Assembly: GCA_017444825.1 (NCBI GenBank)
Contig: JAFSVU010000020.1
Location: forward strand, 4,374-68,373
Reading direction: 5' to 3'
Length of the DNA: 64,000 nt
Source: Clostridia bacterium
Lineage (GTDB): Bacteria > Bacillota > Clostridia > UBA1212
The first letter of the stretch is position 1, and each line of letters starts with the position of its first letter. The translations under genes and the position numbers were made by a program. Shown one piece after another: positions 1,385-19,699 of the stretch. A model generated the notes under the pieces. That model did not search any database and was not told the origin of the DNA. It saw nothing but the letters and a program-made list of their open reading frames with translations.

Positions 1385-2830
1385 TTACCGAGTCAGCCAG
1401 CTGGCTTGGGCAGTTTCCTGAAGCTTCTGGAGTCCCTCAAGCATGGTCCTCTCGCCGGAGAGATAGCCTTCAACAGCATAGGCGATGTTGATCTCGCCTG
1501 CGGACATCGTAGGCATGAAGCATCCGAGGGAGCCTGCGAAATCCGCGCTTTCAGCAAAGTTCGAGAAAACGGAGGAGTTCTTTCCGGCCTTTGGATACTC
1601 GCGCCAGAATTTCTCCGAGTTTGCTTCCTTGTTAGCGGGAACGGACTGGCCTTGATCCGCATATCCTTCCGCAGCATCTTTTACCGTTGCGTAAAGAGCC
1701 AGATAAGCGCAGGTGCGGTAGAAGTCGTCGTTGTATGTTTCGCTCTTGCCGTGGTTGACCACTGCAAAGCCGTATACATTGGCGGCGATGGCCTGGTGAT
1801 AAATGCCGTTCTCCTCGTAATTGTCATCTTCCCAGCGGGGGAAATGGATGAAATCCCAGGTCCACTTTTCGCCTTCGGACTCCTCGTCCTCGGCCGCCAG
1901 CAGCGCCTCGCTCCATCTTGCGATATCCTCGTGATCCGCAACTATGAATGCGTATTTTGAAATATCATCGGGCTCAATGTCCTTGGAGTTTACGCAGGCA
2001 ACCAGTCCTCTTGCGGGATCGATTATGTCTGCCATATCCTCAAGGCCTTTTACAACGCCGGGATGTGTGAGGTCAAGCTCTTTTACATCTTCGGAGTTTC
2101 CAACGTAGTCATAAATGTCTTGACCGTAGCTTCTTGCGAAAGCGCCCCATATCGCATAGTCGGTATAGTCCATCGCGATCGGAGTCTCAACGCCCTTCTC
2201 CTTCAGCGCCTCTGCGATCTCGACCATGTCGTCCCAGGTCCAGTCGTCGTGGGGGAAAGAGAATCCCGCGTCTCCTATAAGAGAATAGTTGAGGAGCACG
2301 AACTTGTGGTTGTACTCAAGAGCTATCATGTAGACGGATCCGTTGTAGAAGCAGGCTTCGTAAGCCGCGGGAAGCAGGTCCGTTGCGGGGTTGATCTTCT
2401 TATACGTGTCAAAATTCAGGACAGTTCCGATGTACCGGGTCAGATCAATGATCTTGCCCTCCTGGGCATACTTTGCCATTCTCGGCGCATCCAGCAGTAT
2501 AACGTCTCCCGCCTCTGAAAGGTCGTCCGAGTCCATAAGATCGTCCAGTGTCTCAAAGTAGAGCTCCGGGCTTACACGGTCAAGATCGATATTGATCTCA
2601 ACGCTTGGATAGTCGGAAACGAATACCGATTTGTATCTTTCCAGGTTCTGGGCTCTGTCAGCATATAGATATCCTGAAAGTCTGATCTCATTTACAAGAG
2701 CTTCCGGAGTGGGTCTCGGGGTCGCTTTTGGGCCGTCATCGTCCTTTTTCTTCTCGGCGCAACCGAAGAAGCTGAATGTCAGAAGCAATGTCAGAGCGAC
2801 AGCGATAATGATCTTTAAAGCTTTTTTCAT
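1385..2830 (-). CDS. ABC transporter extracellular solute-binding lipoprotein (family 1, carbohydrate-type)
   Basis: Internal start MKKALKIIIAVALTLLLTFSFFGCAEKKK (signal + lipobox) preceded by a perfect RBS (revcomp TAAGGAGGAGGGACAA-ATG). Last gene of the transporter operon. The ORF track's upstream extension overlaps the permease gene and is rejected. Confidence 0.8.
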   Translation of the reverse strand: MKKALKIIIAVALTLLLTFSFFGCAEKKKDDDGPKATPRPTPEALVNEIRLSGYLYADRAQNLERYKSVFVSDYPSVEINIDLDRVSPELYFETLDDLMDSDDLSEAGDVILLDAPRMAKYAQEGKIIDLTRYIGTVLNFDTYKKINPATDLLPAAYEACFYNGSVYMIALEYNHKFVLLNYSLIGDAGFSFPHDDWTWDDMVEIAEALKEKGVETPIAMDYTDYAIWGAFARSYGQDIYDYVGNSEDVKELDLTHPGVVKGLEDMADIIDPARGLVACVNSKDIEPDDISKYAFIVADHEDIARWSEALLAAEDEESEGEKWTWDFIHFPRWEDDNYEENGIYHQAIAANVYGFAVVNHGKSETYNDDFYRTCAYLALYATVKDAAEGYADQGQSVPANKEANSEKFWREYPKAGKNSSVFSNFAESADFAGSLGCFMPTMSAGEINIAYAVEGYLSGERTMLEGLQKLQETAQASWLTR

Positions 2831-2843
2831 TTGTCCCTCCTCC

Positions 2844-3854
2844 TTATTCGATAACACCGATACGCTCGATACCGGCGGCAAGCTGCTTCTGTCCGAAGAT
2901 GTAGACCAGAAGGACCGGGAACATGACCATGAGGCACCCTGCGAAGAGCATCGGTTCCGAGAGAGCTCTGTCAAGCTCCGACATCATCTGGGATGTGGCA
3001 TACTTGTTGAAGTAGTTTCTTATGTTTGCAAGTCTCGGCTGCAGTGTCTGTTTGCCCTCGAGGTACATGTAGGTGGGAGCCTCGTAGTTGTCATTCCAGT
3101 GCCATACGAATGAGAATATGAACACGATGGCTATGGCCGACTTGACCAGAGGCAGCATGATCTGTCCGAAAACTCTGACAGGGCCCGCGCCGTCGATCCT
3201 TGCGGAGTCGTCCAGTACAGGAGGTATTCTCTGGAAGAAGTACATGTAGATCATTACGAACAGCGCGCCGCGGAGACCGAGTCCGAATACCGCAGGCAAC
3301 ACCACAGGTCCCCACGTATTAACAAGGCTCAAAGTCGCCCAGAGTCCGTACGAAGCAAGTATCATAACCTGAGGCGGGATGAGAAGCACCAATACCACCA
3401 GGATGAACACTATGTTCCTGAATCTGAACTTGTAGCGGCCCAGTGAATAACCAATGAGCGCACAGGACAGTGTCTGGAATATTGCCGAAAGCAGCGACGT
3501 TCCGAGGGAGTTAAAGAATGACGGAATGTAGTCGAGAGCCTGGAAGGCTTTCACAAAGTTGTCCCAGTTTACCGTGGTCGGAATGTACTGGACCGTCGGA
3601 TCCATGTAATCCTGCGACGTCATGAGCGACGTACTGAAGATGTAGATAAAGGGCAGAATGAAGAGGAATGCCATCTCAATGAGAACAAAGTAAACAAATA
3701 TTCTCGATATGAAATGCATTATTTTCTTTTTCGCCTTATAACCAAGGTTTTCGTATTTCTTGATGAGGCCTTTTATACCGCCGATGCGTTTCTTTTCGAC
3801 AACACCTGCAGCGTTTTCAGCAGCATTAACGGTTTCTGTTGTCACTTCAGCCAC
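2844..3854 (-). CDS. ABC transporter permease, MalG-like (CUT1 family)
   Basis: 336 aa, 6 TM pattern. EAA-loop-like DDSARIDGAGPVRVFGQIMLPLVKSAIAIVF. Confidence 0.85.
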   Translation of the reverse strand: MAEVTTETVNAAENAAGVVEKKRIGGIKGLIKKYENLGYKAKKKIMHFISRIFVYFVLIEMAFLFILPFIYIFSTSLMTSQDYMDPTVQYIPTTVNWDNFVKAFQALDYIPSFFNSLGTSLLSAIFQTLSCALIGYSLGRYKFRFRNIVFILVVLVLLIPPQVMILASYGLWATLSLVNTWGPVVLPAVFGLGLRGALFVMIYMYFFQRIPPVLDDSARIDGAGPVRVFGQIMLPLVKSAIAIVFIFSFVWHWNDNYEAPTYMYLEGKQTLQPRLANIRNYFNKYATSQMMSELDRALSEPMLFAGCLMVMFPVLLVYIFGQKQLAAGIERIGVIE

Positions 3855-4780
3855 CTCCTCGTAAACAGTATGAATATGAGTATGACCGCGAGCGTGGCAA
3901 GCATGTACAGCCAGCTGAGAGCGGAAGCCTGTCCGTATTTCGTACCCTCCTGAGTCATGCTGTTCATGATGCTCATAACAGGGTTGTCGGAAGCAACGAA
4001 GGAGTCAACAAGAGCATAGATGCAGTTCAGGATCACGAAAGGTGAAATGTAAGGCAGCGTAACGTGCCAAAAACTTTCCCAGGCGGTAGCACCGTCGATC
4101 TCAACGACCTCGTAGAGGATCGCCGGAACACTCTGGAGCGCTGCGAGGAAGATCAGTATCTCAACACTGCTGGCCCACATGATTGAGCCTATGTTGCTCA
4201 TGATCGTTCCGAAGAAAGTATTTATCTCAGCGGAGCCCGTGGTGATGGAGCTGAATACGCTCATGTTTCCTACGCCATCCGCAAAGAGGTAAGTCATAAT
4301 GGTTCCGGCAAGGATGACCGGGATGAAGAATATGACACGGAACACTGTCCTTCCCGGGAACTCCTGCTTAAGGAGCACAGCCACGAACAGCGAGAACGCA
4401 ACGATGACAGGCACCTTAATGAGAGACATACCGAAGGACTTAAACACCGTTTCACCTACGGACGGATCCTGGATGACCTTAACGTAGTTGTTGATGCCAA
4501 CGAACGTACTGGTTCCCTGGAATCCGTAGAGGTCTGTAAGAACCGTCTGGAAGAAGCTGATCCTTACGGACAGCACCAGCGGCACCACTATGAAACCGAG
4601 AAAACCTATCAGCCAGGGGATCGAGAAAACGAATCCTTCAAGGTTGCGTCTTTTCTCAAAAGACATCAGAGTGTATTTTTGAGAATGCGCAAGCTTCTTT
4701 TTATACTTAATCTGTTTCAAATCAACCGGCCTCCCTTCTTTATCCGACATTAACGGTCTCGAATGCGCCGTTTGTGACAA
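3842..4780 (-). CDS. ABC transporter permease, MalF/UgpA-like (CUT1 family)
   Basis: 312 aa with N-terminal basic region then TM helices. Overlaps the downstream permease by 13 nt (translational coupling). Confidence 0.85.
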   Translation of the reverse strand: MSQTAHSRPLMSDKEGRPVDLKQIKYKKKLAHSQKYTLMSFEKRRNLEGFVFSIPWLIGFLGFIVVPLVLSVRISFFQTVLTDLYGFQGTSTFVGINNYVKVIQDPSVGETVFKSFGMSLIKVPVIVAFSLFVAVLLKQEFPGRTVFRVIFFIPVILAGTIMTYLFADGVGNMSVFSSITTGSAEINTFFGTIMSNIGSIMWASSVEILIFLAALQSVPAILYEVVEIDGATAWESFWHVTLPYISPFVILNCIYALVDSFVASDNPVMSIMNSMTQEGTKYGQASALSWLYMLATLAVILIFILFTRRWLK

Positions 4781-7469
4781 GGCCTATGCCAAGAGCCGGA
4801 ACAACTCCGTCCTCGGTCTCAAAAGCCTCATCTCCGTAGTTAACATAAACCTTAATGCCGTTGCTGTACTCGGTGCAGTAAACATTACCGGATCTTGCTC
4901 CGTCAACGCAACGGTGGCCGGTGATCTCTGCGGCAGCAACAGGGGCGAGCACTTTGTCGGCTATTACGTAGCCCTTCTGAATATCCTTCGAAAGTTCTCC
5001 GTACTGTGCCTTGAAAAGTGAATTGTAGTTTGTGTATCTGAGTTCCTCGGTGGGCTCATGGGTCACTTCGTATGTGAGAAATGCGCCGTACTCAATGGAT
5101 CTCAGGATGGTCTTGGTGTAGTCGGAGCTTCTGTTGACGGCAGATGAATAGTAATCAACCAGTCCGTGATACACGATCTCAAGAAGCGGCACAGACTCAT
5201 CGATGGAGAAGAGTCTCGAGGTCTCCGTAGGAATGTCGAGGATGTTGTCGGCGACTGAAGCCGCATACTCATAGCCATAGTATACCGATACGGTGTCGAA
5301 TACCTCTTTGTACTTCACGATCCAACTGCGGTAGTATTCCAGTCCCTGCTGGCGGAGAAGAGCATTCTCCTTGTTATAGTCGGTATAAAGCAGATTGCCA
5401 AGCTGCTGGAGGTCAAGGTTCTTAAAGCCGAGCTTTGAGAGGTTCTTGATGTCGTTGCTCAGCATCTTGTTGTTGTAGTAGCGGGGGCTCATGTAGTAAT
5501 AGTCCGAATCCCTTCTGAACACGCCCGCGGTGCTGACCAGCTTATAGTTAACGTAGAACGTACCGGGATTCTTTACGACTGCCTGCCTGAGACTTGCGCC
5601 CTTCGGATTTCCGTAGAGTATGAGCATGTTCACGTCAGCAGAGACGGTGGCATCGCTCTCCGCAGCATAGGAGTTGAGATCCTTCAGACCGCCGGAGCCG
5701 CCCATAGCCAGACCGATGTTGTATTTCCGCGTAATGTTTCCGTAGTAGCCGTTCTGCTGCCAGCCCAGCACGGAGTAGCGGATCTTCGGCAATACCGTCT
5801 TAGTGTCGCCGATAATATCCTTTATCTGACCGAAAGTGGTCATGACCTTATAAGTCGGGAATATGGATACCGAAGCCCTGTTTATGTCAGCCACAAAGAC
5901 CTTGAGGTTGAGCACGTCAGGATTCTTGTTCTTGTTCTCCTCAGTGTTTACATCCACCTCGGAATTCTTCAGATAATCAAGGGTCTTCTTATCGTTGCCC
6001 CACTTCTCAATGATAAAGTTTCTGATGTTCTTGGCCACATCCACGTATGAGTAGTCCTTTGAGCTGTCGATCTCAAACATGTATTTCATGGTGAAATCGC
6101 CAATGCCGGACGGAACCTCGAGGAATGTGTACTCGGAACCGCCGTTGCTGAGCTTCGCCTGGTAGAACTCTCTCCACTTGAAGTAATATGAAATGTAGTA
6201 GAACGGGAGGCTCTTCGTGCCGGGCTTGCCCATGAGGATGGAAGCATTGGCTTCGCTCTCGGTAGCAAAGCATGTGAGCATCACTTCGTCGTCGATCGTG
6301 CCGAAAGCGGGAAGCGATATGGTCTCATTGGTCATATTCGGGTAGTTGAACACGTCGAATATGTCGTCGTAGCCGTAAATGCGCTTCTGGTACTCGTCGT
6401 ATGTGGAAATACGGGGCACGTCAAAATATGTGAGACCGCCTGAGCCGTCGGGAGTCACGTAATAACCGCTGTCGCCCTGTCTCTTTGCGCTGATAAAGGG
6501 CAGGCAGGCTATGGAAGCAACTCTCGGCATCTCGTCGGAATCATTGTCGTAGTCCTTTTCCTCCTTGTCCTCATGGACATCCTTCTTGGGAACGTTCACC
6601 ACGAGGTCGCCGTTTTCATCAAGGTAGAACTCAACGCCAATGCTGAACTCATAATTGACCTTGTAGGTCTCCGCCATGTTGTTGGTCTTGGTGATCTCAA
6701 CGGGGATGGTGTATTTAACCTTGAAGCCGTTTTCGATCATGTAATACTCGATGGTAAGCTTATCGTTCTGGTTGATACCCCAGTCCTTTCCTCCGTCAAG
6801 GTTGGAAGCGGTCCAGCCGAGTCTTACAAGAGACGAAATGATGTCATGGTTCTTCTTGTACTTCGGGTAGGGATCGTCTTTGGTGGCGGGATCCATCTCG
6901 CTTTCAAGCGGCGCTGGCCAGCTTCTGATCTCTTTTCTGTCGCCTTTTGCATTGGTTATGTCAAGGATCAGCAGCTGATCGGCAGGCGAGAACTTAAGGA
7001 TTGTCTCACCGCCCTGGCTGTTTTTGACCTTTGCGATCTCGGTCATGCCGGCATCCAGATCAATGCCGGCGCCCACAGGCTTGGGATCGTTCATGACGAT
7101 ATAGTCGCGAAGCCATTTGATGTAGCCGACGTTTCCGCCGAATATTACTTTGTATACTACGAAGACAGCCACGAGGACCACTATCACCGAAATGGTGGTG
7201 GCGATGATCCTGTTTCTCTTCTTTTTCTTTCTCTGCTGCTCGAGGAACCTTTCGGCCTCCTCTTTGTCGACGTAGACATTTCTCTTTACATTTTCCTCGT
7301 CCAGAGACTTGGAGAACAGAGAGGGCTTGTTCTCTTCGGGATTTTCGGTGCCCTGAGTTTTGTCGACAGGATTGGTTTCTGCGGCATTTTCCGGGGTCGT
7401 TCCCTCTATAGTCGTGTTGACTTGAGCAGCGTCTTTATCAGTTTCGGTCTTCTTTATTTTCTTAGACAA
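4740..7469 (-). CDS. Large type-II membrane protein, glycoside-hydrolase-like extracellular domain. Uncharacterised family, paralogous to CDS 41723-43579.
   Basis: 909 aa. TTG start at 7469 with AAAGGAG RBS. About 90 aa of charged N-terminus, then TM IIATTISVIVVLVAVFVVY, then a large ectodomain. Shares GG.SGGLKDL / LGWQQNGYYG / PLLEIVYHG motifs with the cytoplasmic paralog LDGWGKMGYD / GGAEGMKDL / PLFTLVYHE. Confidence 0.6.
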   Translation of the reverse strand: MSKKIKKTETDKDAAQVNTTIEGTTPENAAETNPVDKTQGTENPEENKPSLFSKSLDEENVKRNVYVDKEEAERFLEQQRKKKKRNRIIATTISVIVVLVAVFVVYKVIFGGNVGYIKWLRDYIVMNDPKPVGAGIDLDAGMTEIAKVKNSQGGETILKFSPADQLLILDITNAKGDRKEIRSWPAPLESEMDPATKDDPYPKYKKNHDIISSLVRLGWTASNLDGGKDWGINQNDKLTIEYYMIENGFKVKYTIPVEITKTNNMAETYKVNYEFSIGVEFYLDENGDLVVNVPKKDVHEDKEEKDYDNDSDEMPRVASIACLPFISAKRQGDSGYYVTPDGSGGLTYFDVPRISTYDEYQKRIYGYDDIFDVFNYPNMTNETISLPAFGTIDDEVMLTCFATESEANASILMGKPGTKSLPFYYISYYFKWREFYQAKLSNGGSEYTFLEVPSGIGDFTMKYMFEIDSSKDYSYVDVAKNIRNFIIEKWGNDKKTLDYLKNSEVDVNTEENKNKNPDVLNLKVFVADINRASVSIFPTYKVMTTFGQIKDIIGDTKTVLPKIRYSVLGWQQNGYYGNITRKYNIGLAMGGSGGLKDLNSYAAESDATVSADVNMLILYGNPKGASLRQAVVKNPGTFYVNYKLVSTAGVFRRDSDYYYMSPRYYNNKMLSNDIKNLSKLGFKNLDLQQLGNLLYTDYNKENALLRQQGLEYYRSWIVKYKEVFDTVSVYYGYEYAASVADNILDIPTETSRLFSIDESVPLLEIVYHGLVDYYSSAVNRSSDYTKTILRSIEYGAFLTYEVTHEPTEELRYTNYNSLFKAQYGELSKDIQKGYVIADKVLAPVAAAEITGHRCVDGARSGNVYCTEYSNGIKVYVNYGDEAFETEDGVVPALGIGLVTNGAFETVNVG

Positions 7470-9591
7470 GATAGCTCAACTCCTTTGCAAACTGAACGAT
7501 GAAATCGATAAGCTGTGATGTAAGTCCTCTCACGATCATGAAGAGAACCACAACAGCGGCAACACCTGCGGCCGTAAGCACGAATACCAGCAGCGCCTTA
7601 AGCGGGTTGAATCCGTGTACGCCCTTCATGCACATGAATACGAGGAAAATGACCCATGCGTATGAGATGTATTGTACAATGTTGTAAAGAGGCATTTCCT
7701 GGAGCGTCAGCACCTGGGTGATGATCGCCAAAGGAAGCTGGATGAGTATGAAAGGCACGTGGCAATATGCTCCGCCGATCACAACGTCCCTGAATCTGCC
7801 TTCGCCGTAAAGGATAGTCGTAACACCGTAGTTGACAGTGCAGATGACCGCCCAGGGAAGGATACAGAACAGCAGTTCAAATCCCCAGTCAATGAATTCC
7901 AGAGACTCACCGTTTCTGTAAATGAAGCTCGTGGCGTACAGTGACAGGATATGTGTCACGATGTAGATCACCATGACTATCACCGCATCAAGGTAGGTTC
8001 CCTTGTTCTCATATCTGATATCTTCAAATCCGTCCACCGGATGGATCGAGATATGCACCATATTCTTGAGAAAGGCCACGGTCTTTGTGAAGAAGTTGAC
8101 CTTCGGCTCGCCCTTCGGATGCTTCATCCTGTAGCGCTTCATGATGGACTTAAATACCACGAGACCTACGAGAAGCACCACGAGCACGGTGGCGATGATC
8201 GAGAAGTACTCGCCAAGGAAGTCGGAGCGGAGCTCTTCAAACGCTGTGGACGCACCTGTCGCATCCTCGGCATCGTAGAAATACTGAAGCGCTTCACTGT
8301 ATCTTTCTTCTCTCCAGTAGATCTGACCGATGGACTGAAGCGCAAGAACGTAGAAGTTGTCTTCGCGCTTTACTTCCGTCCACTGAACGAAAGCATTGTC
8401 GGTTCCGGTGGGGTCGTCCGGGTTGTCAGCGGCTTCATATTTTCCGTCGCTGTAATTCTTATTGGCTTTGTGAACAAGTCTTGCAAACTCGGTCTGTTCG
8501 AATACGTAAACGGTGTTGTTCTGACCGTTGAGAACGTACAATCTGCCGTTTTCATCCACCTCAATGGATCTCGGGAGGGAGAACTGGCCGTAGCCCGTAC
8601 CTACCGCACCGAAAGCGAACAGGTTTCTGCCCCACTCATCATATTCATAAACACGGCCGTACGTGGCGTCAATGATGTACGTGTTAAGGTCCTTGTCAAC
8701 GGTGACGTCGATAAAGTTCTGAAGGTCGGCTGAGTTTCTCAAAAGACCTATATCCGAGAAATCCTTTCCGGCGTAAAGAACGTCCGAACCTGCGGGGTTT
8801 ATCTTACGCATCTGAGCACTGGTGTAACCGGTCGTAGTGGCGTAGATATAACCGTCATGTATAAATATATTGTTAAAAGTATAAGGGAGCGTAACAACGG
8901 TTCCTTTTCTGGACTCTCTTGACCAGAGGAATCTCGCGACCATCTCCCAGAATGTGAGAGCAACCTTGTTTGTTCCGAAATAGTTTCTGAACTCACCGTC
9001 GGAGGAGAGCATCAGAATACCGTTCGAGTCGCCAACGGAGCAAACGTAGATGTATCCCTTCTCATCTTTTACGACGCGCTGGGGCTGGTAGTTAAAATCA
9101 TCCACCAGTATGTCACTGGACGGAGTCGGATATGCGTAACGGAAATTGCCGTACTTCGTGAACTCCACAAGTCGCTTGTTACCGTAGTCGGCTACGAGAA
9201 TGGTTCCGTCTTTGTCAACGAACACGCAGGTCGGCTTGCTGAGCTTGCTTCCGTCCTCCTCGAAGCCTGTGATCTCGAAATCGAAAGTGTAGTCACTCTT
9301 CAGAATAACGATCCTGTTGTTTCCCGTATCGGCGATATAGATCTTTCCGTCGGGGCCGATGAAAATGTCCTCAGGGTCGAGGAGTTTTCCGTGCTCCTTG
9401 TCGGGGAAGTCGATTACCTTGCTGATTTGATAAGCCTCCGGTGTGGGAAGGTTCCAGCTGTAATCGTCAGAGGATGACATGAAGTAGTTTGAGTACGGAG
9501 TCGCGGCACTGACAGGCGCTATCGTGAAAAGTGAGAGCACCAACGCCAATGCGACCGAAAGACACACAAATTTTGAAATGTTTCTTCTCAT
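7462..9591 (-). CDS. Secreted NHL-repeat beta-propeller protein fused to a C-terminal multipass (Yip1-like) membrane domain
   Basis: 709 aa. Signal peptide ...APVSAATP. NHL-type repeats IYIADTGNNRIVIL, LVADYGNKRLVEF, YVLNGQNNTVYVF. The C-terminal ~270 aa contain 5-6 hydrophobic helices. Confidence 0.7.
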   Translation of the reverse strand: MRRNISKFVCLSVALALVLSLFTIAPVSAATPYSNYFMSSSDDYSWNLPTPEAYQISKVIDFPDKEHGKLLDPEDIFIGPDGKIYIADTGNNRIVILKSDYTFDFEITGFEEDGSKLSKPTCVFVDKDGTILVADYGNKRLVEFTKYGNFRYAYPTPSSDILVDDFNYQPQRVVKDEKGYIYVCSVGDSNGILMLSSDGEFRNYFGTNKVALTFWEMVARFLWSRESRKGTVVTLPYTFNNIFIHDGYIYATTTGYTSAQMRKINPAGSDVLYAGKDFSDIGLLRNSADLQNFIDVTVDKDLNTYIIDATYGRVYEYDEWGRNLFAFGAVGTGYGQFSLPRSIEVDENGRLYVLNGQNNTVYVFEQTEFARLVHKANKNYSDGKYEAADNPDDPTGTDNAFVQWTEVKREDNFYVLALQSIGQIYWREERYSEALQYFYDAEDATGASTAFEELRSDFLGEYFSIIATVLVVLLVGLVVFKSIMKRYRMKHPKGEPKVNFFTKTVAFLKNMVHISIHPVDGFEDIRYENKGTYLDAVIVMVIYIVTHILSLYATSFIYRNGESLEFIDWGFELLFCILPWAVICTVNYGVTTILYGEGRFRDVVIGGAYCHVPFILIQLPLAIITQVLTLQEMPLYNIVQYISYAWVIFLVFMCMKGVHGFNPLKALLVFVLTAAGVAAVVVLFMIVRGLTSQLIDFIVQFAKELSYLV

Positions 9592-9603: not shown

Positions 9604-10473
9604 TTACTTGATACCCGAGTGGGCCATCGTATCCATAACGCTCGACTGGGAGACGATGAATACGATAATACTCGGAACAGTCATGATGAGTGAGGCTGCG
9701 GCATTAGCACCTTGTCTTGCAAGACCACCCTGCAGGGTGCTCATGAAGAATGCAAATGTACGGAGCTGCTCCTCATAAATGTAGGTCGTGGAAGCCGAGC
9801 TGTCATTCCAGATGCCCGGGAACGTCAGGATGACGCAGGTCGCCTGGGCATTTCTTAAGAGAGGCAAAGCTATCTTTGTGTACAGCTGCCATTCGGAGGC
9901 ACCGTCTATCTTTCCGGCTTCAAATATGGAATCCGGCACCTGGTCAAGGAACTGCTTCAAGAGGAACATACACGTGCAGTTTGCAAGTCCCGGGATGATA
10001 TATACCAGATAGGTATTGTCCAGATGAAGACCCGTAACGATTATGTAGGACGGGATGGCCGCAGCACCGGATATGATAAGGAGCGCGTTAGTAACGAGCT
10101 TGAAAAGTCCCTTCGCACCGGGGAATTTGTGCTTTGAAAGCGGGTAGCAGGCCATCGTTCCGACGACTATCATTGCGAAAATGTACAGCACCGTGATAAG
10201 CACAGTGTTGAACAGGTATCTTGTGAACGGAACCATCGTGTTTGAAGTAATGCTCACAAGGTCGGTGAAATTCTTGAGTGTCGGGTTGGACACGTAGAAT
10301 CTCGGCGGATAGAGGAACAGCTCTTCGGCAGGCTTGAATGCCGTAACCACGAGGTAGATCAGAGGCAGAAAGGATACAATGCCCGCAAATCCAAGTAAGA
10401 TCGAAATTACGGTCGGAGCATATTCTCTGCGTTTCTTGGCTTTCTTTAAATAATCAACGTCTACTTGAAACAC
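9604..10473 (-). CDS. ABC transporter permease, MalG-like (second pair)
   Basis: 289 aa. EAA-like EAGKIDGASEWQLYTKIALPLL. Confidence 0.85.
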   Translation of the reverse strand: MFQVDVDYLKKAKKRREYAPTVISILLGFAGIVSFLPLIYLVVTAFKPAEELFLYPPRFYVSNPTLKNFTDLVSITSNTMVPFTRYLFNTVLITVLYIFAMIVVGTMACYPLSKHKFPGAKGLFKLVTNALLIISGAAAIPSYIIVTGLHLDNTYLVYIIPGLANCTCMFLLKQFLDQVPDSIFEAGKIDGASEWQLYTKIALPLLRNAQATCVILTFPGIWNDSSASTTYIYEEQLRTFAFFMSTLQGGLARQGANAAASLIMTVPSIIVFIVSQSSVMDTMAHSGIK

Positions 10474-10479
10474 CTGTCA

Positions 10480-11484
10480 TCACCCCTTATCACTTAACAG
10501 CCTGAAGGCAAGTCTTCCTATACCGAGAACCAATGCGGAGAGCACGACGGCGATGGCCGAAGCATAACCGACCTCAAAACGCTGTCCGGCATAGTCTCCA
10601 AGGTGAAGCATGATTGTAAGACCGGCATCCTCAGGGCTCGGGTGTCCCACAAGGGCCTGGCTTATTCCGCCTACCGTAAACGAACCGGTTATCGTAAGGA
10701 CCGCGGAGAAGAGCAGCTGAGGCATCGTCTGCGGTATGTCAATGTAGATAAGTCTCTGGAATCTTGATGTGATACCGTCGACCATGGCCGCGTCGTAGAG
10801 TTCCTTATCAACGTTGGTGAATCCGGCGACGAAAGAAAGGAATCCGGTACCCAGTGAAGACCACAGCGAGACTATGATGATTACAGGCATGATCCAGTTG
10901 ACATTCTGAAGGAACTGTATAGGCTCCGTGATCAGGCCCGCATTGAGCAAAGCTGAGTTTATGTAACCCTGGCTGTCGTTTGCGAAAACCACCAGCCATA
11001 CGACGCTGAGCGCCACGCCGCCGGTAAGGGAAGGCGCGTAGAAGGCCAGTGTGTAGAGCGGCTTCAGCCTCTTCGGAACCTGGTTGATGAACCAGGCGAA
11101 GAAGTACGACGCAATGTAGGAAACAGGTCCGACTATGATCGCGTAGTACAGAGTGTTGCTGAAGGCCTTCAGGAACAGGCTGTCCTCAACGAAGAGGTAG
11201 AGGTAGTTGTCCCAGAAGATGAACCTCGGAAGGCTCAGCGCGTTGAAGTAGAAGAAGCTCAGCGCAGCCGAAGCGATAAGAGGCAACAGCGTGAATGTGA
11301 TGAAGCAGATAAAGAAGGGAGCGATCAGCGCATACGACATCTTGAACTGGCCCATCTCATGGAGCTTAAAGCGGAAATACGATTTCGTATAATCCTTCTT
11401 TTTCTTTCCGGTGGCCAATTCCTGATTGTCGGAATCGACTACCACAGAAGGCTCATTTTTGAGTTTCTTTTCTTTTTTGCTCAT
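10480..11484 (-). CDS. ABC transporter permease, MalF-like (second pair)
   Basis: 334 aa. YDAAMVDGITSRFQRLIYIDIP EAA-like loop. Long basic N-terminus. Confidence 0.85.
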   Translation of the reverse strand: MSKKEKKLKNEPSVVVDSDNQELATGKKKKDYTKSYFRFKLHEMGQFKMSYALIAPFFICFITFTLLPLIASAALSFFYFNALSLPRFIFWDNYLYLFVEDSLFLKAFSNTLYYAIIVGPVSYIASYFFAWFINQVPKRLKPLYTLAFYAPSLTGGVALSVVWLVVFANDSQGYINSALLNAGLITEPIQFLQNVNWIMPVIIIVSLWSSLGTGFLSFVAGFTNVDKELYDAAMVDGITSRFQRLIYIDIPQTMPQLLFSAVLTITGSFTVGGISQALVGHPSPEDAGLTIMLHLGDYAGQRFEVGYASAIAVVLSALVLGIGRLAFRLLSDKG

Positions 11485-11485
11485 A

Positions 11486-14400
11486 TCAGCCCTCCCCCTT
11501 TCTAGTCGACCAGATTATCGAGAAGTCTTCCTTTATAAGGTTACCCTCGCTGTCAAACGCATCATTGAAGAATTCTTTCTGTTTACGTTTCATTTCTTTG
11601 TTGATCTCCCTGACGGCATCCTCGAGAGCGATCCTGATGTTGTCGCCCTGAAGAACGGACTGGTTGAGCGCTGTCAGGAGGTAACGGTCTGTGTAGTATC
11701 CTCCGAGAACCACGGGGTATTCGGTGAAGTACTTCCACTGCTCGTTGATGACTTCCAGCTCATCGTCGCTGTATGCCATGTTGTTTATGGCAAGCTTGTT
11801 GGCTGTGTTCCATCTCGAAGCAACGCCGAACGTGGCCTCGACTTCCTGAGCATACTTGACCTGGATCTCCTCGCTCATCCACCACTTGACGAATTCCCAG
11901 CCTTCGGCTGCGTGGTTTCTGTCGCCCTCGTTTCTGATGAGGATGCAGGTGGTTCCGCTTCCGCCCATGCTTCTGTCAACCGTGCCGTCCTCTTTGAGAT
12001 GTCCCGGAACAGGCGACATAGCCCATTTACCGTTGATCTCAGGAGCGGAATATTTGAGCTGGCAGTAGAGGCCCATATCCGCAACTCCTATCGGCATGTC
12101 GCCGAGCTTGAACTTCATGTAGAAGTTGGATGCGTAAGGAATATTGTATTTATTGTAAAGGTTGGCGTACTCGTAGAAAGCATCGTATGCTTCTGCCGAA
12201 TCCAGGTTGGAGTGGAGACCGTCCGCGTCGTAAACCGACGCGCCGTTCTGGTAAAGGAACGGGTACATGTTTCCGACACCGTAGTTATAGCAGAAATCCA
12301 TGCTCTTTTCCTGGAGTCTCGGAAGTATCTCGTATACCTCTTCCCAGGTGTCCGGAGGATTCTCTATACCCAGTTCCTCCATGATATCCGTTCTGTAGAA
12401 GAGGGCCACCCAGTTCTGGGTCTCCGGCACCGTGTAATACATTCCGCGGTATCTGGAAAGCGTGTAGTTTCCGGGGAGGAAGTTCTCATCGAAATATGTG
12501 TAGAAATCGGTGTTTTCATCCTCCACGCCGTCTCCGTCGAGGTCGTTGTACGCCACCAGAGCGCCTCTGGCGGCATATTCGACAGGCGACCTGTTGCCTA
12601 CCGAGATGGCCACGTCAGGAGCGGTCTTCGTAACATAGCGCAGCATGACGAGGCCTTCGACATTCTGTACCATGTTAACGTTTACTCTGATATATTTCTC
12701 TTCGGTGACCCCGTTAACCGTCACTGCGCGTTTCACCGGTGTGAAGTCCTCGGCGATGAGGGCTCTCAGCATCTCGACGTATTCACGTCCTCTGCCGATA
12801 TAGACCTCGATCTCCTCGGTCTGGTTTTTAGAGGGGTCTTCTCTTGCGCCGACAACGGAGTAATCCTTTACCCAGGAGTCTCCGAATTTGATGGCGCCTA
12901 CGTAGAAGGACTGGAAGCCGTTACTGCGGCATTTATCATAGTTGAACTCGCCGCCGTGAATGACCATGTAATCGATGGCGATGGGCTGCTCGGTGATATT
13001 CTGAAGGGTTGTTGAAAGGCTCGAAAGAGCGTTTGAAATTTCGTTCAGGGATGCGGGAATGTCCTCAAGGCCCTCCGTACCTCTGGCAAGTCTCTCGAAG
13101 AGAGCTTTTGCCACGGCAACGGACGATCCGTAATAAGGGGTGACATCGCCGTTGGCGGCCTTGATCTCGTTAAATATCCTCTCGAAGGTGTCGCGGTAGT
13201 TTGCGATCTCTTCTTCGATTCCCATGATGTATTTATCGAGGTCCCAGTCTCTGTTCTTATCAACGCTGTATCCGCCGGTGGAGCTTCTCGTCGCGCCTGT
13301 GATGTTAACGACCATGCTGATAAGCTTTGAGATCGAATCCATGGACTCTTTGAGACTCTGGATGGCCTTTCTCAGGGGGCCGACCTTCGATGTGATGCTT
13401 ATGGTGTGGGTGCCCTTTGTGAGGTAGAAGTAATAAGGCTGCTGATTTTCGTCTATCAGCGAGGAACCTGCCCATCCGTCTGTGTACGGGAAGCAGTACT
13501 CCTCCATCTGTTCGAAGGGGATCTCGCCGTCAATGTTGATCTCGGCGTACACCGCGATATCCGTCAGTGTATTCTGGTATCTGAAACCGATCTGGTACCA
13601 GCCGTCTTTCTCTACGTTAAAGCTCCAGGAGGCACCGTCGCCGCCGTTGGCCCATCTGTCGCCGCCGAAATAGTTATATCTTGTGACCTTGTAGGATGCG
13701 GGTGATGAAGCATAGTCGCCGTCCCACTCGCTTCTGATGCTGATGGTGTTCTTTGTGTCGGGTACCTCAAACTCTACCTTGGTAAGGCCATCCTTAACGA
13801 TAGCGCTCTCGGAGAAGGAGTTCCGGACCTTGTACTCTTCATAAGTGAGAGACTTGAGAGGAGCCTTCAGTGTGATGGTTTTGATAATAACGGGCTCTCT
13901 TCCGAAGGTGAGCGATATAGTCCTCGGTTTGTCTGCAGATGCAAGGGAGCTGGCGTTGATCAGGAACCTGTAGGGGTTTCTGTAAAGACCTTCGGGATTC
14001 TGAAGAGTGGTCGTCTGCCACATGAAAAGTTCCTGCTGCTGGTTGCGGATCTCGTTTCCTCCGAAATCAAGGCTCTTTTTATCGAAGAATCCGTAAACAC
14101 GCTTAAGCTCGATGCTGGCGGCTTCCTTGAAGGGGTACTTGTTATCTACACTCAGACGGACCAGGGTGTTGTTAGATCTGTTCTCCGGGAGAAAATACTC
14201 AACGTCCATTGAGTAAAGAGCGGTCTCGGGCACATCAGGTTTGTAGATAAACGTGATCTCCTCGATGGCGCTGGAGGAACCGTCACCCGCATCGTTTCTG
14301 CCGAAATATATGGCGGAGGGGTCTGCCTTGATGGTTCCGGAGGCCTCGGTGAACCTGTCTTTCTGATTCGAAGCCGATGTGTAACCGTTCTCGTCTCTGC

Positions 14401-14911
14401 CCTCTTCGATGTCGACCTTGTAGGTAAAACCGTAATCCTCGTCAAAGCTGATGTGATTTACGATCCTCTCGATCTTCCTGACGACCTCCTCGGTGGCAAA
14501 AGAGAATTCTCCGTTAAGGACCTTCCCGTAATCGTAGTTCTTACCGCGGTAGGAGACGTTTTTGTATTCACCGTTATCGTCGCGGTAGAGGTAAAGTGTG
14601 TCGCCGCTGTCGATCTTAAAGCTGATGCCGTAAAAATCTGTAGCGTTAATGACAATATCTTCACCCGCGTAGGACTCGTATTTCTTGTCACCGTACTTCT
14701 TCAGTACCTTTCCGTACTCGAGGAGACTGTTATCGGATCTCTCCTCATAATCGGCAAAGGGGTTGAAGTCAAGAATATCGTCGTTTTCGACTTTGAACTG
14801 CTTGACATCCGCCTTGCGGCCGCCATAGATAAAGAGAGCCGCAATAATGGCAACGACAAGCACTGCAAAAATCACCAAAACGATAATTTTACGCTTTTGT
14901 TTCTTGTCCAT
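11486..14911 (-). CDS. Giant membrane-anchored solute-binding protein. N-terminal TM, ~650-aa extension with a beta-sandwich CBM-like segment, and a C-terminal family-1 SBP domain.
   Basis: 1141 aa. MDKKQKRKIIVLVIFAVLVVAIIAALFIYGG anchor. Middle segment NGGDGASWSFNVEKDGWYQIGFRYQN is CBM-like. The C-terminal ~450 aa (WVALFYRTDIMEELGI...PDTWEEVYEI...) resemble extracellular solute-binding proteins. First gene of the operon. Confidence 0.7.
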   Translation of the reverse strand: MDKKQKRKIIVLVIFAVLVVAIIAALFIYGGRKADVKQFKVENDDILDFNPFADYEERSDNSLLEYGKVLKKYGDKKYESYAGEDIVINATDFYGISFKIDSGDTLYLYRDDNGEYKNVSYRGKNYDYGKVLNGEFSFATEEVVRKIERIVNHISFDEDYGFTYKVDIEEGRDENGYTSASNQKDRFTEASGTIKADPSAIYFGRNDAGDGSSSAIEEITFIYKPDVPETALYSMDVEYFLPENRSNNTLVRLSVDNKYPFKEAASIELKRVYGFFDKKSLDFGGNEIRNQQQELFMWQTTTLQNPEGLYRNPYRFLINASSLASADKPRTISLTFGREPVIIKTITLKAPLKSLTYEEYKVRNSFSESAIVKDGLTKVEFEVPDTKNTISIRSEWDGDYASSPASYKVTRYNYFGGDRWANGGDGASWSFNVEKDGWYQIGFRYQNTLTDIAVYAEINIDGEIPFEQMEEYCFPYTDGWAGSSLIDENQQPYYFYLTKGTHTISITSKVGPLRKAIQSLKESMDSISKLISMVVNITGATRSSTGGYSVDKNRDWDLDKYIMGIEEEIANYRDTFERIFNEIKAANGDVTPYYGSSVAVAKALFERLARGTEGLEDIPASLNEISNALSSLSTTLQNITEQPIAIDYMVIHGGEFNYDKCRSNGFQSFYVGAIKFGDSWVKDYSVVGAREDPSKNQTEEIEVYIGRGREYVEMLRALIAEDFTPVKRAVTVNGVTEEKYIRVNVNMVQNVEGLVMLRYVTKTAPDVAISVGNRSPVEYAARGALVAYNDLDGDGVEDENTDFYTYFDENFLPGNYTLSRYRGMYYTVPETQNWVALFYRTDIMEELGIENPPDTWEEVYEILPRLQEKSMDFCYNYGVGNMYPFLYQNGASVYDADGLHSNLDSAEAYDAFYEYANLYNKYNIPYASNFYMKFKLGDMPIGVADMGLYCQLKYSAPEINGKWAMSPVPGHLKEDGTVDRSMGGSGTTCILIRNEGDRNHAAEGWEFVKWWMSEEIQVKYAQEVEATFGVASRWNTANKLAINNMAYSDDELEVINEQWKYFTEYPVVLGGYYTDRYLLTALNQSVLQGDNIRIALEDAVREINKEMKRKQKEFFNDAFDSEGNLIKEDFSIIWSTRKGEG

Positions 14912-15030: not shown

Positions 15031-15059
15031 ATTATAAGTTTTTTGGTTATTTGTGTCAA
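15031..15059 (-). promoter_or_regulatory. Sigma-A-type promoter for the ABC uptake operon (revcomp TTGACA-17-TATAAT)
   Basis: Minus strand reads TTGACAcaaataaccaaaaaactTATAAT. It sits ~110 nt upstream of the 14911 start codon. Confidence 0.5.
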
Positions 15060-15227
15060 TGATTATTTTGGCCGGAGGAGGCTCTGTTTTCGGGTCATCT
15101 CCTTGTAATAATATAATAAAGTCCGGAGGCCTGAACCGGCCGAACCTTGACTGAAGATTGATTTGTTTTATGCTCCGCAAAGAGAAGCTCTTTATGCGTT
15201 CCCTGTTGCACCCCCGAGAACGCAGGA

Positions 15228-15272
15228 AAGACCCCGCGGACGTCTCCTTCCGGAGCACCGCGGGGTCTGCCC
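15228..15272 (-). terminator. Stem-loop downstream of the DHHW gene
   Basis: GACCCCGCGG...CCGCGGGGTC 10-bp inverted repeat just after the stop at 15293. Confidence 0.4.
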
Positions 15273-15292: not shown

Positions 15293-17104
15293 TTATTTCA
15301 GCGGCAGGCTCGACAGGTAATCGTAGCACATGCGCGCACAGTTCACGTTATCCGAGTCGTAACGCTCGACTGCCATGATGAGCAGGAGATCTCCCGCTTT
15401 CAGTTCAGCCAGTGCGTCCTTTATGACGGTCTTTCCGGAGGAAACGACAGCTGCGCCGTCCCCTTCCTTCACGTAGTTTGATACCGTGTTGAAGTCGCCT
15501 CTGTGGGTCACGGTGACCTTGCAGTAGTCCTTGGCGAGATAAGGTGCGATCGCGTGTCTGAACGAATCTCCAATTATCAGGGCCTTCTGCTCCGTTGGCG
15601 CGTCGGACGTATACACTCTGAGCTCCGTGTTGGGAGTCTCATTGCCGCCGGTTACCGTGTTGGAATAGTATGCCGCGACTTTTGATTTGACCCACGGCTT
15701 ATAGTTCACGGAATAGCCGGTGTAATGTGTCGCGGGCCCTACGCCCAGGTTCACAAGGTCCCCGCCCTTGTAATCGCCCTCGGTGACTTCCACGTTCTGA
15801 AGACCGGTCACGGGGAGTCCTATCGCAGAATAGACCTGCATGGCGCCGACGAAGCCTCCAACGGAATTCCAGTGGGTGTCCTGCTGAAGGTATGTCTCGT
15901 AGAGTATCTTTGCGGATTTCATCTGGGTAAGGGGATACACAAACTTTATCGGACTGCCCTGCTGCTTCAGATATTCCACAAACTTTGGTTCGCGCTTCGC
16001 GGAATCGTCCACGATGGTAACGCCCGAAGGCATATACTCTGCGTAGACCTGCTCCTTGTTCGGGGGAATGAGGAACACGACCGAAATGCCTCTTTTCTCG
16101 CATTCGTAGTGAATAAGTTCATACGTATCCTTCCACGATTTGGCATCGGCGGCGGAGAGCACGTTGTCCCCCTGGAAATAGCCCACGCTGTCGTTTCCCG
16201 AATAGAAATACCAGTCGTGAAGGCCCTTGAAGCCTGCGCCGCTGTAAGAGATGGGAGATTTCCCGTCGTAGAATCCTTTAACAGTGGTCCGGAGGACGAT
16301 GTTGCTGACATCCACATCCGAGCACATGGAGCACTTTTTCATGACGTAGCCGTCGTGGGCGTAAGAAGCGTTCTGGCTTTTTACCACCGTATAAATATGG
16401 CCCGGCGCTTTGATGACCTCGTATTTATATTCGCCGCAGTATTCGCACTGATAGCGGGCTTCTCCGTCTTTCGTGCAGGACGACGTTTTAATGACCGTAT
16501 AGTTCACGAAATGGTGAGGACAGGGAGTGGGAGTGGGTGGCTCTGTCGCTTCCGGAGACTCAGTCTCCTCCGGGGATTCGGTCTCTTCCGGCTCCGGTGT
16601 GTCAGTCGCCTCCGGTGTCTCCGTGGGTGTCTCCGTGGGAGCTTCCGTGGGCTCTTCTGTAGGGGCTTCGGTGGGGTCACCGAAAATACCGCCGAAATCC
16701 GGCGTAGGCGTCGGCTCCGGGGTCGGGGTCGGTGTCTGATCGGGTGCCAAAGTTACCTCCGGGGTCGCCGTGGGCTCGGGGGTCGCATTGGCGAGTACTA
16801 TCGCCCTGTAGATCGGGTTTTTGATCCTCTCCTCGTAAAACTTGCTCATTCCGTTGTCCATGTCCTTCATGACCTGAATGTTCCAGTTCCTGAGCGGGGC
16901 ATGGTCTTTTATAAAGCTGTCGACTTTGGCAAAGTAGTCGTTGGAATATTCCGACGGAAAACCCGCAAGCTCCCTGATCTCGCCGCCCTCTTCGTCCTGG
17001 ACAACGTCAAGTCCCGCGATTCCCAGGGCCCAGGGTACGGCTATGGCAAGCGCAAACAGGCTCACCGCCACTATGGATATGATGAAATTCTTCACCTGCC
17101 GCAC
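15293..17104 (-). CDS. DHHW-family (AlgJ/AlgX/DltD-like) protein with N-terminal TM, Pro/Thr/Glu linker and an inserted Cys-rich module
   Basis: 603 aa. DTHWN motif in ETYLQQDTHWNSVGG. Linker TPEPTATPEV...PTPTP. Cys-rich block CPHHF...CTKDGEARYQCEYCGEY...CSMCSD. Lies immediately downstream of the MBOAT gene. Confidence 0.75.
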   Translation of the reverse strand: MRQVKNFIISIVAVSLFALAIAVPWALGIAGLDVVQDEEGGEIRELAGFPSEYSNDYFAKVDSFIKDHAPLRNWNIQVMKDMDNGMSKFYEERIKNPIYRAIVLANATPEPTATPEVTLAPDQTPTPTPEPTPTPDFGGIFGDPTEAPTEEPTEAPTETPTETPEATDTPEPEETESPEETESPEATEPPTPTPCPHHFVNYTVIKTSSCTKDGEARYQCEYCGEYKYEVIKAPGHIYTVVKSQNASYAHDGYVMKKCSMCSDVDVSNIVLRTTVKGFYDGKSPISYSGAGFKGLHDWYFYSGNDSVGYFQGDNVLSAADAKSWKDTYELIHYECEKRGISVVFLIPPNKEQVYAEYMPSGVTIVDDSAKREPKFVEYLKQQGSPIKFVYPLTQMKSAKILYETYLQQDTHWNSVGGFVGAMQVYSAIGLPVTGLQNVEVTEGDYKGGDLVNLGVGPATHYTGYSVNYKPWVKSKVAAYYSNTVTGGNETPNTELRVYTSDAPTEQKALIIGDSFRHAIAPYLAKDYCKVTVTHRGDFNTVSNYVKEGDGAAVVSSGKTVIKDALAELKAGDLLLIMAVERYDSDNVNCARMCYDYLSSLPLK

Positions 17105-17110
17105 CTCCCG

Positions 17111-18622
17111 TCAGAAGTTCTGGTAAATGGACGGCGCATAGGAACCGCCCACCACTCTTACGATGCAGAGTGCGAACAGCGCAAGCAGCAGAACGTACTC
17201 AACGATGCGCACCCAAGTCTTCGTCTTGAACTTTTCAGCTACTTTTGCGAGAGGTCTCTGGAGCGCGCCGCAGAAAACAATGCCGCAGACGAGGGCAATG
17301 ATGACCGAAAGATCAAGGTAGGACAGCACGGAATAGCCCGCGGAGGACGACTTGAAGGAGAACATCTGACCAATGTACTTCCCTGCAAAATCAAGGCTGT
17401 CGGATCTGAAGAACACCCAGCCGATCATGACCACCAGCGTGGTGTACAGCCAGTTCAGAGGCTTCACCGGGTTCTTCTGAAGAAGTTTTCCGAGGAACAG
17501 CCTTTCTATAATGCTCATCACCACGAAAATGAGACCCCAGACTATAAAGGTCAGGTTTGCACCGTGCCAGATGCCCGTCACGAAGAACACGACGGCGACG
17601 TTGAAGCACGCTCTCGCCTTGCTGCACCTGCTTCCTCCGAGGGGTATGTAGATGTAATCCTTGAACCAGTTGGAAAGCGATATGTGCCATCTGCGCCAGA
17701 ATTCCTGGACCGAGAATGACGTGTAAGGATAATTGAAGTTTTCGTCGATCTTAAATCCGAGCATACCGCCCACGCCAATGGCCATATCGGTGTAGCCCGA
17801 AAAATCGTAATAGATCTGGATCGTGTAAAGGACGATGCCGAGCCATGCTATCGGGGCGCCCATGGATTCGATGTTCATGGTGGTATTCTGGGTCGCGAAG
17901 ATCTTGTCCACCGAGGCGGCGACGACATTGGCGATGAGCACTTTTTTCGCAAGGCCGTAAACAAACCGTCTCAGCCCGGCAGTGAAGCCCTCCATCGTAT
18001 GGGTCCTGCTCTCGATCTGCTTTCCCAGGTTCCCGTATCTCATGATAGGTCCCTGTGTGACCTGGCAGAGCAGCGTCATGTACAGCGCAAAGGTGAGGAT
18101 GTTTTTCGAACGCTCCGTCTTCCCGAGATAGACGTCGGTGACATACGAGATCGCCTGGAATATGATAAACGAGATCGCAAGGGGCATCACTATCTTCAGG
18201 ATCCCCTCAGGAACGACTGAAGTGTTGAACTTGACCAGTCCCTCCATGGCCGCGCCGAAACTGCCGCTGTTTTTGAACATGTCTATCATGCTCATGAACA
18301 TGGTGGTGTACTTGAAGAAGATGAGCACGCCCACGTTAAGAAGAAGCGTTCCTACGAAAACCGCCCGCCTGAGGCCTTTTTTCTTTTCGGCATCAATGGC
18401 GCCAATGGCCCACCCCGCGAAAAAGTTCAGCGCTATCAGGGCAATGAAGAGAAGAAGCTCATTGATCCCTCCGAAAGCGTAGAAAACGAGACTTGCGAGG
18501 AGGAGGAAACCGTTTCTGATACCTGTCCTGACCCGCTCTTTTTTGATAAATCCCAGCAGGTAGTATACGATCAGTATTACCGGCAGGAACAGTTCAATAA
18601 ACAAAACCGATGCAAATTCCAT
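17111..18622 (-). CDS. MBOAT-family membrane O-acyltransferase (AlgI/DltB/PatA-like)
   Basis: 503 aa multipass. WRRWHISLSNWFKDYIYIPLGGSR and GIWHGA motifs are typical of MBOAT. Confidence 0.85.
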   Translation of the reverse strand: MEFASVLFIELFLPVILIVYYLLGFIKKERVRTGIRNGFLLLASLVFYAFGGINELLLFIALIALNFFAGWAIGAIDAEKKKGLRRAVFVGTLLLNVGVLIFFKYTTMFMSMIDMFKNSGSFGAAMEGLVKFNTSVVPEGILKIVMPLAISFIIFQAISYVTDVYLGKTERSKNILTFALYMTLLCQVTQGPIMRYGNLGKQIESRTHTMEGFTAGLRRFVYGLAKKVLIANVVAASVDKIFATQNTTMNIESMGAPIAWLGIVLYTIQIYYDFSGYTDMAIGVGGMLGFKIDENFNYPYTSFSVQEFWRRWHISLSNWFKDYIYIPLGGSRCSKARACFNVAVVFFVTGIWHGANLTFIVWGLIFVVMSIIERLFLGKLLQKNPVKPLNWLYTTLVVMIGWVFFRSDSLDFAGKYIGQMFSFKSSSAGYSVLSYLDLSVIIALVCGIVFCGALQRPLAKVAEKFKTKTWVRIVEYVLLLALFALCIVRVVGGSYAPSIYQNF

Positions 18623-19678: not shown

Positions 19679-19699
19679 TATGATTTCCTTTTGGTTATT

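Follow-up and report, generated by a model that had tools for sequence, protein, structure and literature searches.

In Gram-positive bacteria such as Roseburia, Eubacterium and Bifidobacterium, polysaccharide-utilisation loci bring together (i) surface glycoside hydrolases (GHs) with carbohydrate-binding modules (CBMs); (ii) a lipoprotein solute-binding protein (SBP); and (iii) an ATP-binding cassette (ABC) importer. In the Sus-like systems of Bacteroidota, SusD, SusE and SusF are glycan-binding proteins of the cell surface, and import takes place via a TonB-dependent transporter. The MalE-type SBPs of CUT1 importers, for their part, are proteins of about 400 amino acids (aa), either lipoproteins or periplasmic. 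Here, an operon is described in a stretch of 64,000 nucleotides from Clostridia bacterium (UBA1212; assembly GCA_017444825.1, contig JAFSVU010000020.1, positions 4,374 to 68,373), hereafter the window. Its first gene encodes an SBP of 1141 aa, referred to as the giant SBP, which, unlike MalE-type SBPs, has about 650 extra N-terminal residues with four more structural units and a predicted transmembrane (TM) signal-anchor. With a probability of roughly 0.55, the giant SBP serves as the capture-and-delivery subunit in a system that takes up glycans at the cell surface and uses an ABC importer of the MalEFG/CUT1 type.

The genes of the operon, in the order in which they are read, are the following:

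11486..14911, minus strand: gene of the giant SBP, 1141 aa, first gene of the operon
10480..11484, minus strand: ABC permease 1 (BPD_transp_1), with its start codon 1 nt past the stop codon of the giant SBP
9604..10473, minus strand: ABC permease 2 (BPD_transp_1), after a gap of 6 nt
7462..9591, minus strand: NHL-Yip1 protein, 709 aa, in which a signal peptide and an extracellular NHL beta-propeller precede a multi-pass Yip1 membrane domain at the C-terminus
4740..7469, minus strand: DUF5696 protein, 909 aa, consisting of a single TM helix at aa 88-106 plus an ectodomain of ~800 aa
3842..4780, minus strand: ABC permease 3 (BPD_transp_1)
2844..3854, minus strand: ABC permease 4 (BPD_transp_1)
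1385..2833, minus strand: second, ordinary SBP (SBP2), with the lipoprotein signal MKKALKIIIAVALTLLLTFSFFGC

These genes lie on the same strand with junctions of 1-12 nt gaps or overlaps, and the giant SBP is translationally coupled to two permease genes of the MalF/MalG type. The gene of the giant SBP starts with an ATG at 14911, with AAAGG nine bases before it, and its reading frame is uninterrupted in the open reading frame (ORF) check; an earlier reading made from the letters of the window alone (the sequence-only reading) had proposed this same 1141-aa frame, which is borne out. A promoter-like TTGACA-17-TATAAT (15031..15059, minus strand, 12/12 matches) lies ~120 nt 5' of the start codon and, just upstream of it, a GC-rich terminator-like hairpin (~15215-15270) closes the preceding AlgX-like gene. 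In consequence, the giant SBP gene opens its own transcription unit. At the opposite end, another hairpin (~1330-1370) follows the stop codon of SBP2.

In the C-terminal part of the giant SBP, Pfam SBP_bac_8 covers aa 761-1022 (52.5 bits versus a cut-off of 27; 8e-14), and the family profile matches Lin1841, the sophoro-oligosaccharide SBP of Listeria innocua, at 1.5e-28, together with many other oligosaccharide SBPs. When the full predicted model is compared with MalE-type structures, 420-450 columns can be aligned, with TMt values of 0.81 (Xanthomonas MalE, 3uor) and 0.80 (apo Lin1841, 5ysb). On the basis of the profile score above threshold, the modelled fold and the linkage to permeases, the C-terminal domain is classified as a complete two-lobed family-1 SBP. 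It thus shares with the MalE-type SBPs of CUT1 importers a two-lobed fold (predicted here for the C-terminal ~420 aa) and a gene position immediately before a pair of permease genes of the MalF/MalG type. Nevertheless, its identity to these structures is only 15-19% and, therefore, the ligand specificity of MalE-type SBPs is not transferable to the giant SBP; for this reason, a substrate taken from the nearest structures (binders of sophoro-, cycloisomalto-, malto- and cello-oligosaccharides) was rejected.

The full-length AlphaFold2 (AF2) model, built with 42 homologues, has a mean pLDDT of 86.7 and a pTM of 0.76, and presents the giant SBP as a single coherent chain. A separate AF2 model of the N-terminal part (aa 36-645) reaches a pLDDT of 90.0 and a pTM of 0.87. 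The following parts can be differentiated:

14825..14887, minus strand: signal-anchor TM helix (aa 9-29), after MDKKQKRK
14297..14734, minus strand: D1 (~aa 60-205), a small alpha/beta domain
13862..14269, minus strand: D2 (~aa 215-350), the first, CBM35/Golvesin_C-like beta-sandwich
13382..13816, minus strand: D3 (~aa 366-510), the second, CBM35/CBM6-like beta-sandwich, which carries the motif NGGDGASWSFNVEKDGWYQIGFRYQN
13571-13648, minus strand: the motif NGGDGASWSFNVEKDGWYQIGFRYQN itself (aa 422-447), within D3
12992..13381, minus strand: helical region (aa 511-640) of four long helices
11570..12982, minus strand: connector (aa 644-681; a strand and a helix) and, after it, the MalE-type SBP domain (~aa 698-1114)

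As far as the anchor is concerned, the giant SBP has a sole hydrophobic segment (aa 9-27; Kyte-Doolittle 3.56) behind a Lys-rich start, which forms a helix (residues 3-30) in the AF2 model; a Cys or a lipobox was looked for at the N-terminus and none was seen. Nearly all of the 42 aligned homologues have a K-rich signal-anchor without a lipobox, and a few have instead a cleavable-looking signal peptide. The giant SBP is hence predicted to be exported and held at the membrane by an uncleaved-looking TM signal-anchor, not by a lipobox. SBP2 offers a comparison within the same operon: its listed ORF (1385-2974) starts with TTG at 2974, but the true start is probably the ATG at 2833, which has a strong GGAGGAGGG site before it and would give a protein of 482 aa with the lipoprotein signal …TFSFFGC. 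Since SBP2 has a lipobox, lipid anchoring is available to the organism, and the TM anchor is specific to the giant SBP.

D1 has no fold assigned to it and is poorly conserved: it is found only in the close subfamily, is absent or unalignable in homologues of ~960 aa and has a coverage of 31% in distant relatives. The helical region, in turn, gave as its sole sequence matches (profile versus PDB) antiparallel coiled-coil designs and chemoreceptors; these were set aside as reflecting heptad-like composition only. Regarding the overall layout, the sequence-only reading had described a protein anchored by a TM helix and not by a lipid, in which a CBM-like beta-sandwich and then a helical linker lead to a family-1 SBP at the C-terminus, and each of these parts was recovered by profile or by model. 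What it had missed was the minus strand, a second CBM-like domain, D1, the membership of the protein in a large conserved family and its place at the head of a fixed multi-gene cassette.

As for the two beta-sandwiches, a Foldseek run with the N-terminal model against PDB gave a probability of 1.0 for structures of single CBM35 and CBM6 modules, including (i) the CBM35 of CsxA (2vzr/2vzp; TMt 0.57-0.60); (ii) a CBM35 from C. thermocellum, CtCBM35 (2w47; TMt 0.53); (iii) the CBM35 of GH66 CITases (5x7g/3wnk; 22-23% identity and a root-mean-square deviation, rmsd, of 3.6-3.8 A over 119 columns); and (iv) the CBM6 of an agarase (2cdo; TMt 0.39-0.40). The top-ranked matches (Cry toxins, PNGase, GH101, meprin) were disregarded, as they are multi-domain alignments with TM ~0.1 and rmsd >17 A. 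At the profile level, the N-terminal region matches the CBM35 of the GH66 CITase 5x7g at E=9e-8. The guess of CBM6 or CBM35 made from the letters was, consequently, a good one.

Compared by hhalign, D2 and D3 prove to be homologues (probability 99.6%, E=8e-24), and the extension therefore contains a diverged tandem pair. This homology is seen only by profile-profile comparison, as pairwise BLAST of D2 versus D3 is insignificant (E=0.057). In Pfam, Golvesin_C is touched by 14 and CBM_35 by 10 of 17 homologues (E 1e-4 to 1), all below threshold. Furthermore, the giant SBP polypeptide has no catalytic domain and lies outside the CAZy definition of a CBM as part of a carbohydrate-active enzyme. 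All in all, profiles and models place D2 and D3 within the CBM35/6 fold and as distant relatives of CBM35, not as members by HMM (hidden Markov model) threshold or by the CAZy definition. With CBM35-1 of the GH66 CITases (5x7g, 3wnk) and the CBM35 of CsxA (2vzp) they share the predicted beta-sandwich fold and, with the CITase modules, the common sequence pattern VPE-G-Y-...-RY / ...-YLT-G-HTI; in the HMM alignment, aromatics fall at or beside the sugar-contacting positions of the CITase. Unlike those CBM35 modules, the sandwiches of the giant SBP form a diverged tandem pair, and what they are attached to is the binding protein of a transporter instead of a carbohydrate-active enzyme.

D3 is the best-conserved part of the extension, with an identity among distant homologues of 35% versus 36% for the SBP domain. 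Most of the invariant residues of the extension are found here: E382, N413, G416, G417, W420, G437, Y439, W480, Y496 and G500. In PsCITase, the sugar-contacting residues of CBM35-1 are W507 (the canonical Trp), Y470 and Y519 (PMC5408701). The HMM alignment was mapped to the numbering of that paper by adding 19 to the chain index, and it places Y496 on Y519 and W438 on Y470, next to the invariant Y439. This suggests that a sugar site of the CBM35 type may be retained in D3.

Beyond the window, a common gene order was found in all 13 giant-SBP loci inspected: the giant SBP and two permeases come first, then NHL and Yip1 (as one fused gene or as two), then DUF5696 and two further permeases. These loci have 27-80% identity to the N-terminal module of the window and include Paenibacillus sp. 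PAMC21692 (CP060293, 3,054,431-3,065,464) and several gut or rumen contigs; the operon occurs in many Firmicutes from gut, rumen and soil. This order is absent from 2 control loci with ordinary SBPs only, which a single-protein locus scan had returned besides close relatives. SBP2 is present in some of the loci only.

The DUF5696 protein provides the cassette with a candidate enzyme. A profile of 20 members, compared with PDB, matched GH129 enzymes collinearly over three segments: the 3,6-anhydro-D-galactosidase of Zobellia (5opq/8rzg) at ~4e-8 to 6e-8 and the alpha-N-acetylgalactosaminidase of Bifidobacterium (5wzn) at 1e-5. The catalytic nucleophile and acid/base of the (beta/alpha)8 barrel are not confidently covered by these segments. 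Single DUF5696 sequences match DUF5696 alone in Pfam at a meaningful E-value. In view of these profile matches, DUF5696 is probably a membrane-anchored glycosidase and a distant relative of GH129, from whose enzymes it differs by its N-terminal TM anchor, and it may stand for a family of glycoside hydrolases not described so far. Regarding the NHL-Yip1 protein, the closest solved relatives of its NHL propeller are propellers derived from the PknD sensor. In three loci (L004, L013 and L014), the propeller and Yip1 are encoded by separate adjacent genes, some of them with TPR matches.

When compared with the Gram-positive polysaccharide-utilisation loci, the operon resembles them in having a putative extracellular glycosidase, SBPs and MalFG-type permeases together. 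But while in those loci the CBMs are carried by the enzyme, here the CBM-like domains are on the SBP and the putative enzyme is an uncharacterised DUF; besides, the two permease pairs and the NHL-Yip1 protein have no counterpart there. A functional analogy with SusD, SusE and SusF is possible, inasmuch as non-catalytic glycan capture may take place beside a transporter. Nonetheless, there is no sequence or fold relation to these proteins, the envelope is different and the transporter is an ABC importer instead of a TonB-dependent one. The suggestion of the sequence-only reading that the protein could bind polymers directly at the cell surface is plausible.

According to the capture-and-delivery reading, the tandem CBM-like domains would keep a glycan chain in place on the cell surface or, alternatively, would hold the giant SBP at the site of cleavage. 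The DUF5696 enzyme would cut the chain and thereby free oligosaccharides, on one of which the C-terminal binding domain would close before docking on the adjacent permeases. Import would be powered by an ATPase encoded elsewhere. The TM helix would replace the lipid anchor used by SBP2 and leave an arm of ~600 aa free to reach outward.

Several observations weigh against the capture-and-delivery reading. The window protein has no Pfam CBM_35 match at E<=0.01, and its Golvesin_C score is 19.9-21.8 bits versus a cut-off of 31.6. In the HMM alignment, which uses no coordinates, the invariant W480 of D3 is two positions off W507 of PsCITase, in a loop. No MalK-type ABC ATPase is found in the 64-kb window. 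Firmicute sugar importers, it should be said, commonly share one ATPase encoded elsewhere, and in one of the loci (L015) the gene immediately upstream of the giant SBP encodes a MalK-type ATPase (3523-4641; ABC_tran, OB_MalK, TOBE_2). In some loci, the giant SBP is the sole SBP for two permease pairs and, hence, a simple scheme of one SBP per permease pair is unproven. The glycoside hydrolases which flank the cassette vary from GH36-like in the window to GH2, GH10-GH43 and GH106 elsewhere; as they differ between genomes, no substrate is indicated. Finally, a literature search, whose coverage is incomplete, found no paper on the giant-SBP family, nor on DUF5696, the cassette, or an SBP with CBM-like domains behind a TM anchor.

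Some of these observations would also fit an N-terminal module that is a protein scaffold or stalk, either docking onto the NHL-Yip1 protein, DUF5696 and the permeases in one membrane complex, a Gram-positive utilisome of sorts, or acting as a plain spacer between membrane and binding domain. The gene order shared by all 13 loci, the strong conservation of the helical bundle and D3, the predicted rigidity of the module (pTM 0.87) and the merely sub-threshold matches to CBM family HMMs are all compatible with it, as is the fact that the CBM35 of CITase is part of the substrate groove of the enzyme and not a free module (PMC5408701). However, the HMM alignment puts invariant aromatics of surface type on or close to the canonical sugar site of CBM35, and the closest structural matches are, without exception, bona fide sugar-binding CBM35 or CBM6 modules, so that a scaffold without glycan binding is considered unlikely. 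If the CBM-like domains were merely structural, the finding would shrink to an oddly long SBP. A variant that keeps glycan binding and adds organisation is that the giant SBP is the organising arm of a Gram-positive glycan machine, in which D2/D3 and the bundle would hold the chain as well as DUF5696, with NHL-Yip1 placed over two importers in the same assembly. This is a speculative proposal, and a rather improbable one; were it true, capture, cleavage and uptake would be physically coupled as in the utilisome of Bacteroidota, though with unrelated parts, and DUF5696 would found a new GH family distantly related to GH129.

The polymer in question might also be the cell's own. If a surface glycopolymer (wall polysaccharide or exopolysaccharide) were recycled or sensed, the giant SBP would be bound to that polymer, and a TM-anchored arm could sit inside the wall; the NHL propeller, which resembles the PknD sensor type, would suit such a role, and in the window the operon follows a pair of genes for an MBOAT acyltransferase and an AlgX-like SGNH protein. 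This possibility looks very unlikely in view of the hairpin and promoter which part that pair from the operon, and of six distant loci flanked by catabolic-looking genes (AraC regulators, GH10-GH43, GH106, GH2 and a MalK-type ATPase). As for the length of the ORF, the sequence-only reading had itself named a fusion artefact among the things that would overturn it. Its unusual length alone might raise the suspicion that an assembly error or a frameshift has joined two genes, an explanation with next to no chance of being right: the frame is unbroken, a 99%-identical 1141-aa protein exists in another assembly, hundreds of independent full-length homologues have the same part order, and the AF2 chain is coherent. 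The capture-and-delivery reading is considered the most likely one.

The family to which the giant SBP belongs is large. A word-indexed search retrieved 283 relatives, from metagenome-assembled genomes (MAGs) of Clostridia and Ruminococcaceae and from Paenibacillus; most of the complete ones have 960-1226 aa, cover 78-100% of the query and show the same order of parts. Across these three groups, homologues of full length reach a query coverage of 95-100%. Their given names are uninformative (e.g., "extracellular solute-binding protein"). When a profile of the N-terminal module alone was searched exhaustively, 2,875 representatives matched at E<=1e-3, of which 1,270 pass E<=1e-30; the family thus comprises at least 1,270 clusters at 50% identity. 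Among the best 150 profile matches, the start of the module lies no further in than residue ~250 in all cases and ~120 in most, and the complete proteins have ~950-1050 aa, corresponding to the module plus an SBP (~450 residues after the module). In longer homologues, such as P0112 (1226 aa; L014, 10001-13681) and P0155 (1188 aa), the module profile matches further in or in two stretches. These matches suggest extra CBM-like copies or insertions and, with them, a varying number of sandwich domains in the family.

The window comes from a Clostridia MAG of rumen type. The genomes closest to it, MAGs from the rumen, carry the labels Mageeibacillus sp. UBA1212 and UBA1243, and IJS71_04000 of "Clostridia bacterium" has 100% identity to the DUF5696 neighbour. 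No helpful NCBIfam match was obtained for the giant SBP, for DUF5696 or for the AlgX-like protein. In Ruminiclostridium cellulolyticum, Ccel_2997 is listed as a family-1 SBP with a predicted N-terminal anchor, and it is strongly substrate-dependent in proteomics (PMC5256962); it might belong to the giant-SBP family and is a lead only.

Regarding the surroundings of the operon, the following features lie on either side of it in the window:

753-1292, minus strand: gene of a small DUF6106 membrane protein, downstream of the operon and followed by a terminator-like hairpin (697-674)
15293-18622, minus strand: MBOAT acyltransferase (503 aa), then a membrane-anchored AlgX-like SGNH protein (603 aa)
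18770-21811, minus strand: Hsp33 chaperone gene, which has the MBOAT gene on one side and the gene of a Melibiase/GH36-like protein (703 aa) on the other, an odd grouping

A pair formed by an MBOAT and an AlgX-like protein is typical of glycopolymer O-acylation. In six more distant loci with listed genes, the pair does not adjoin the cassette. A link of this pair to the operon was rejected, owing to the terminator-like hairpin and promoter between them and to its absence from the distant loci inspected. In L015, the cassette is followed by a two-component system.

A putative N-terminal capture module and an anchor of this kind on a transporter SBP are without precedent in the literature searched, and the giant SBP belongs to a large unannotated family in a conserved, unstudied operon. 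Firmicutes dominate the breakdown of fibre in gut and rumen, and their glycan uptake is far less understood than the Sus-like systems of Bacteroidota. Since the family also occurs in Paenibacillus PAMC21692, with a complete chromosome of 8.6 Mb, it could be experimentally accessible. Working out the cassette could define (i) a new CBM family; (ii) a new glycoside hydrolase family; and (iii) a new Gram-positive way of coupling glycan capture to import.

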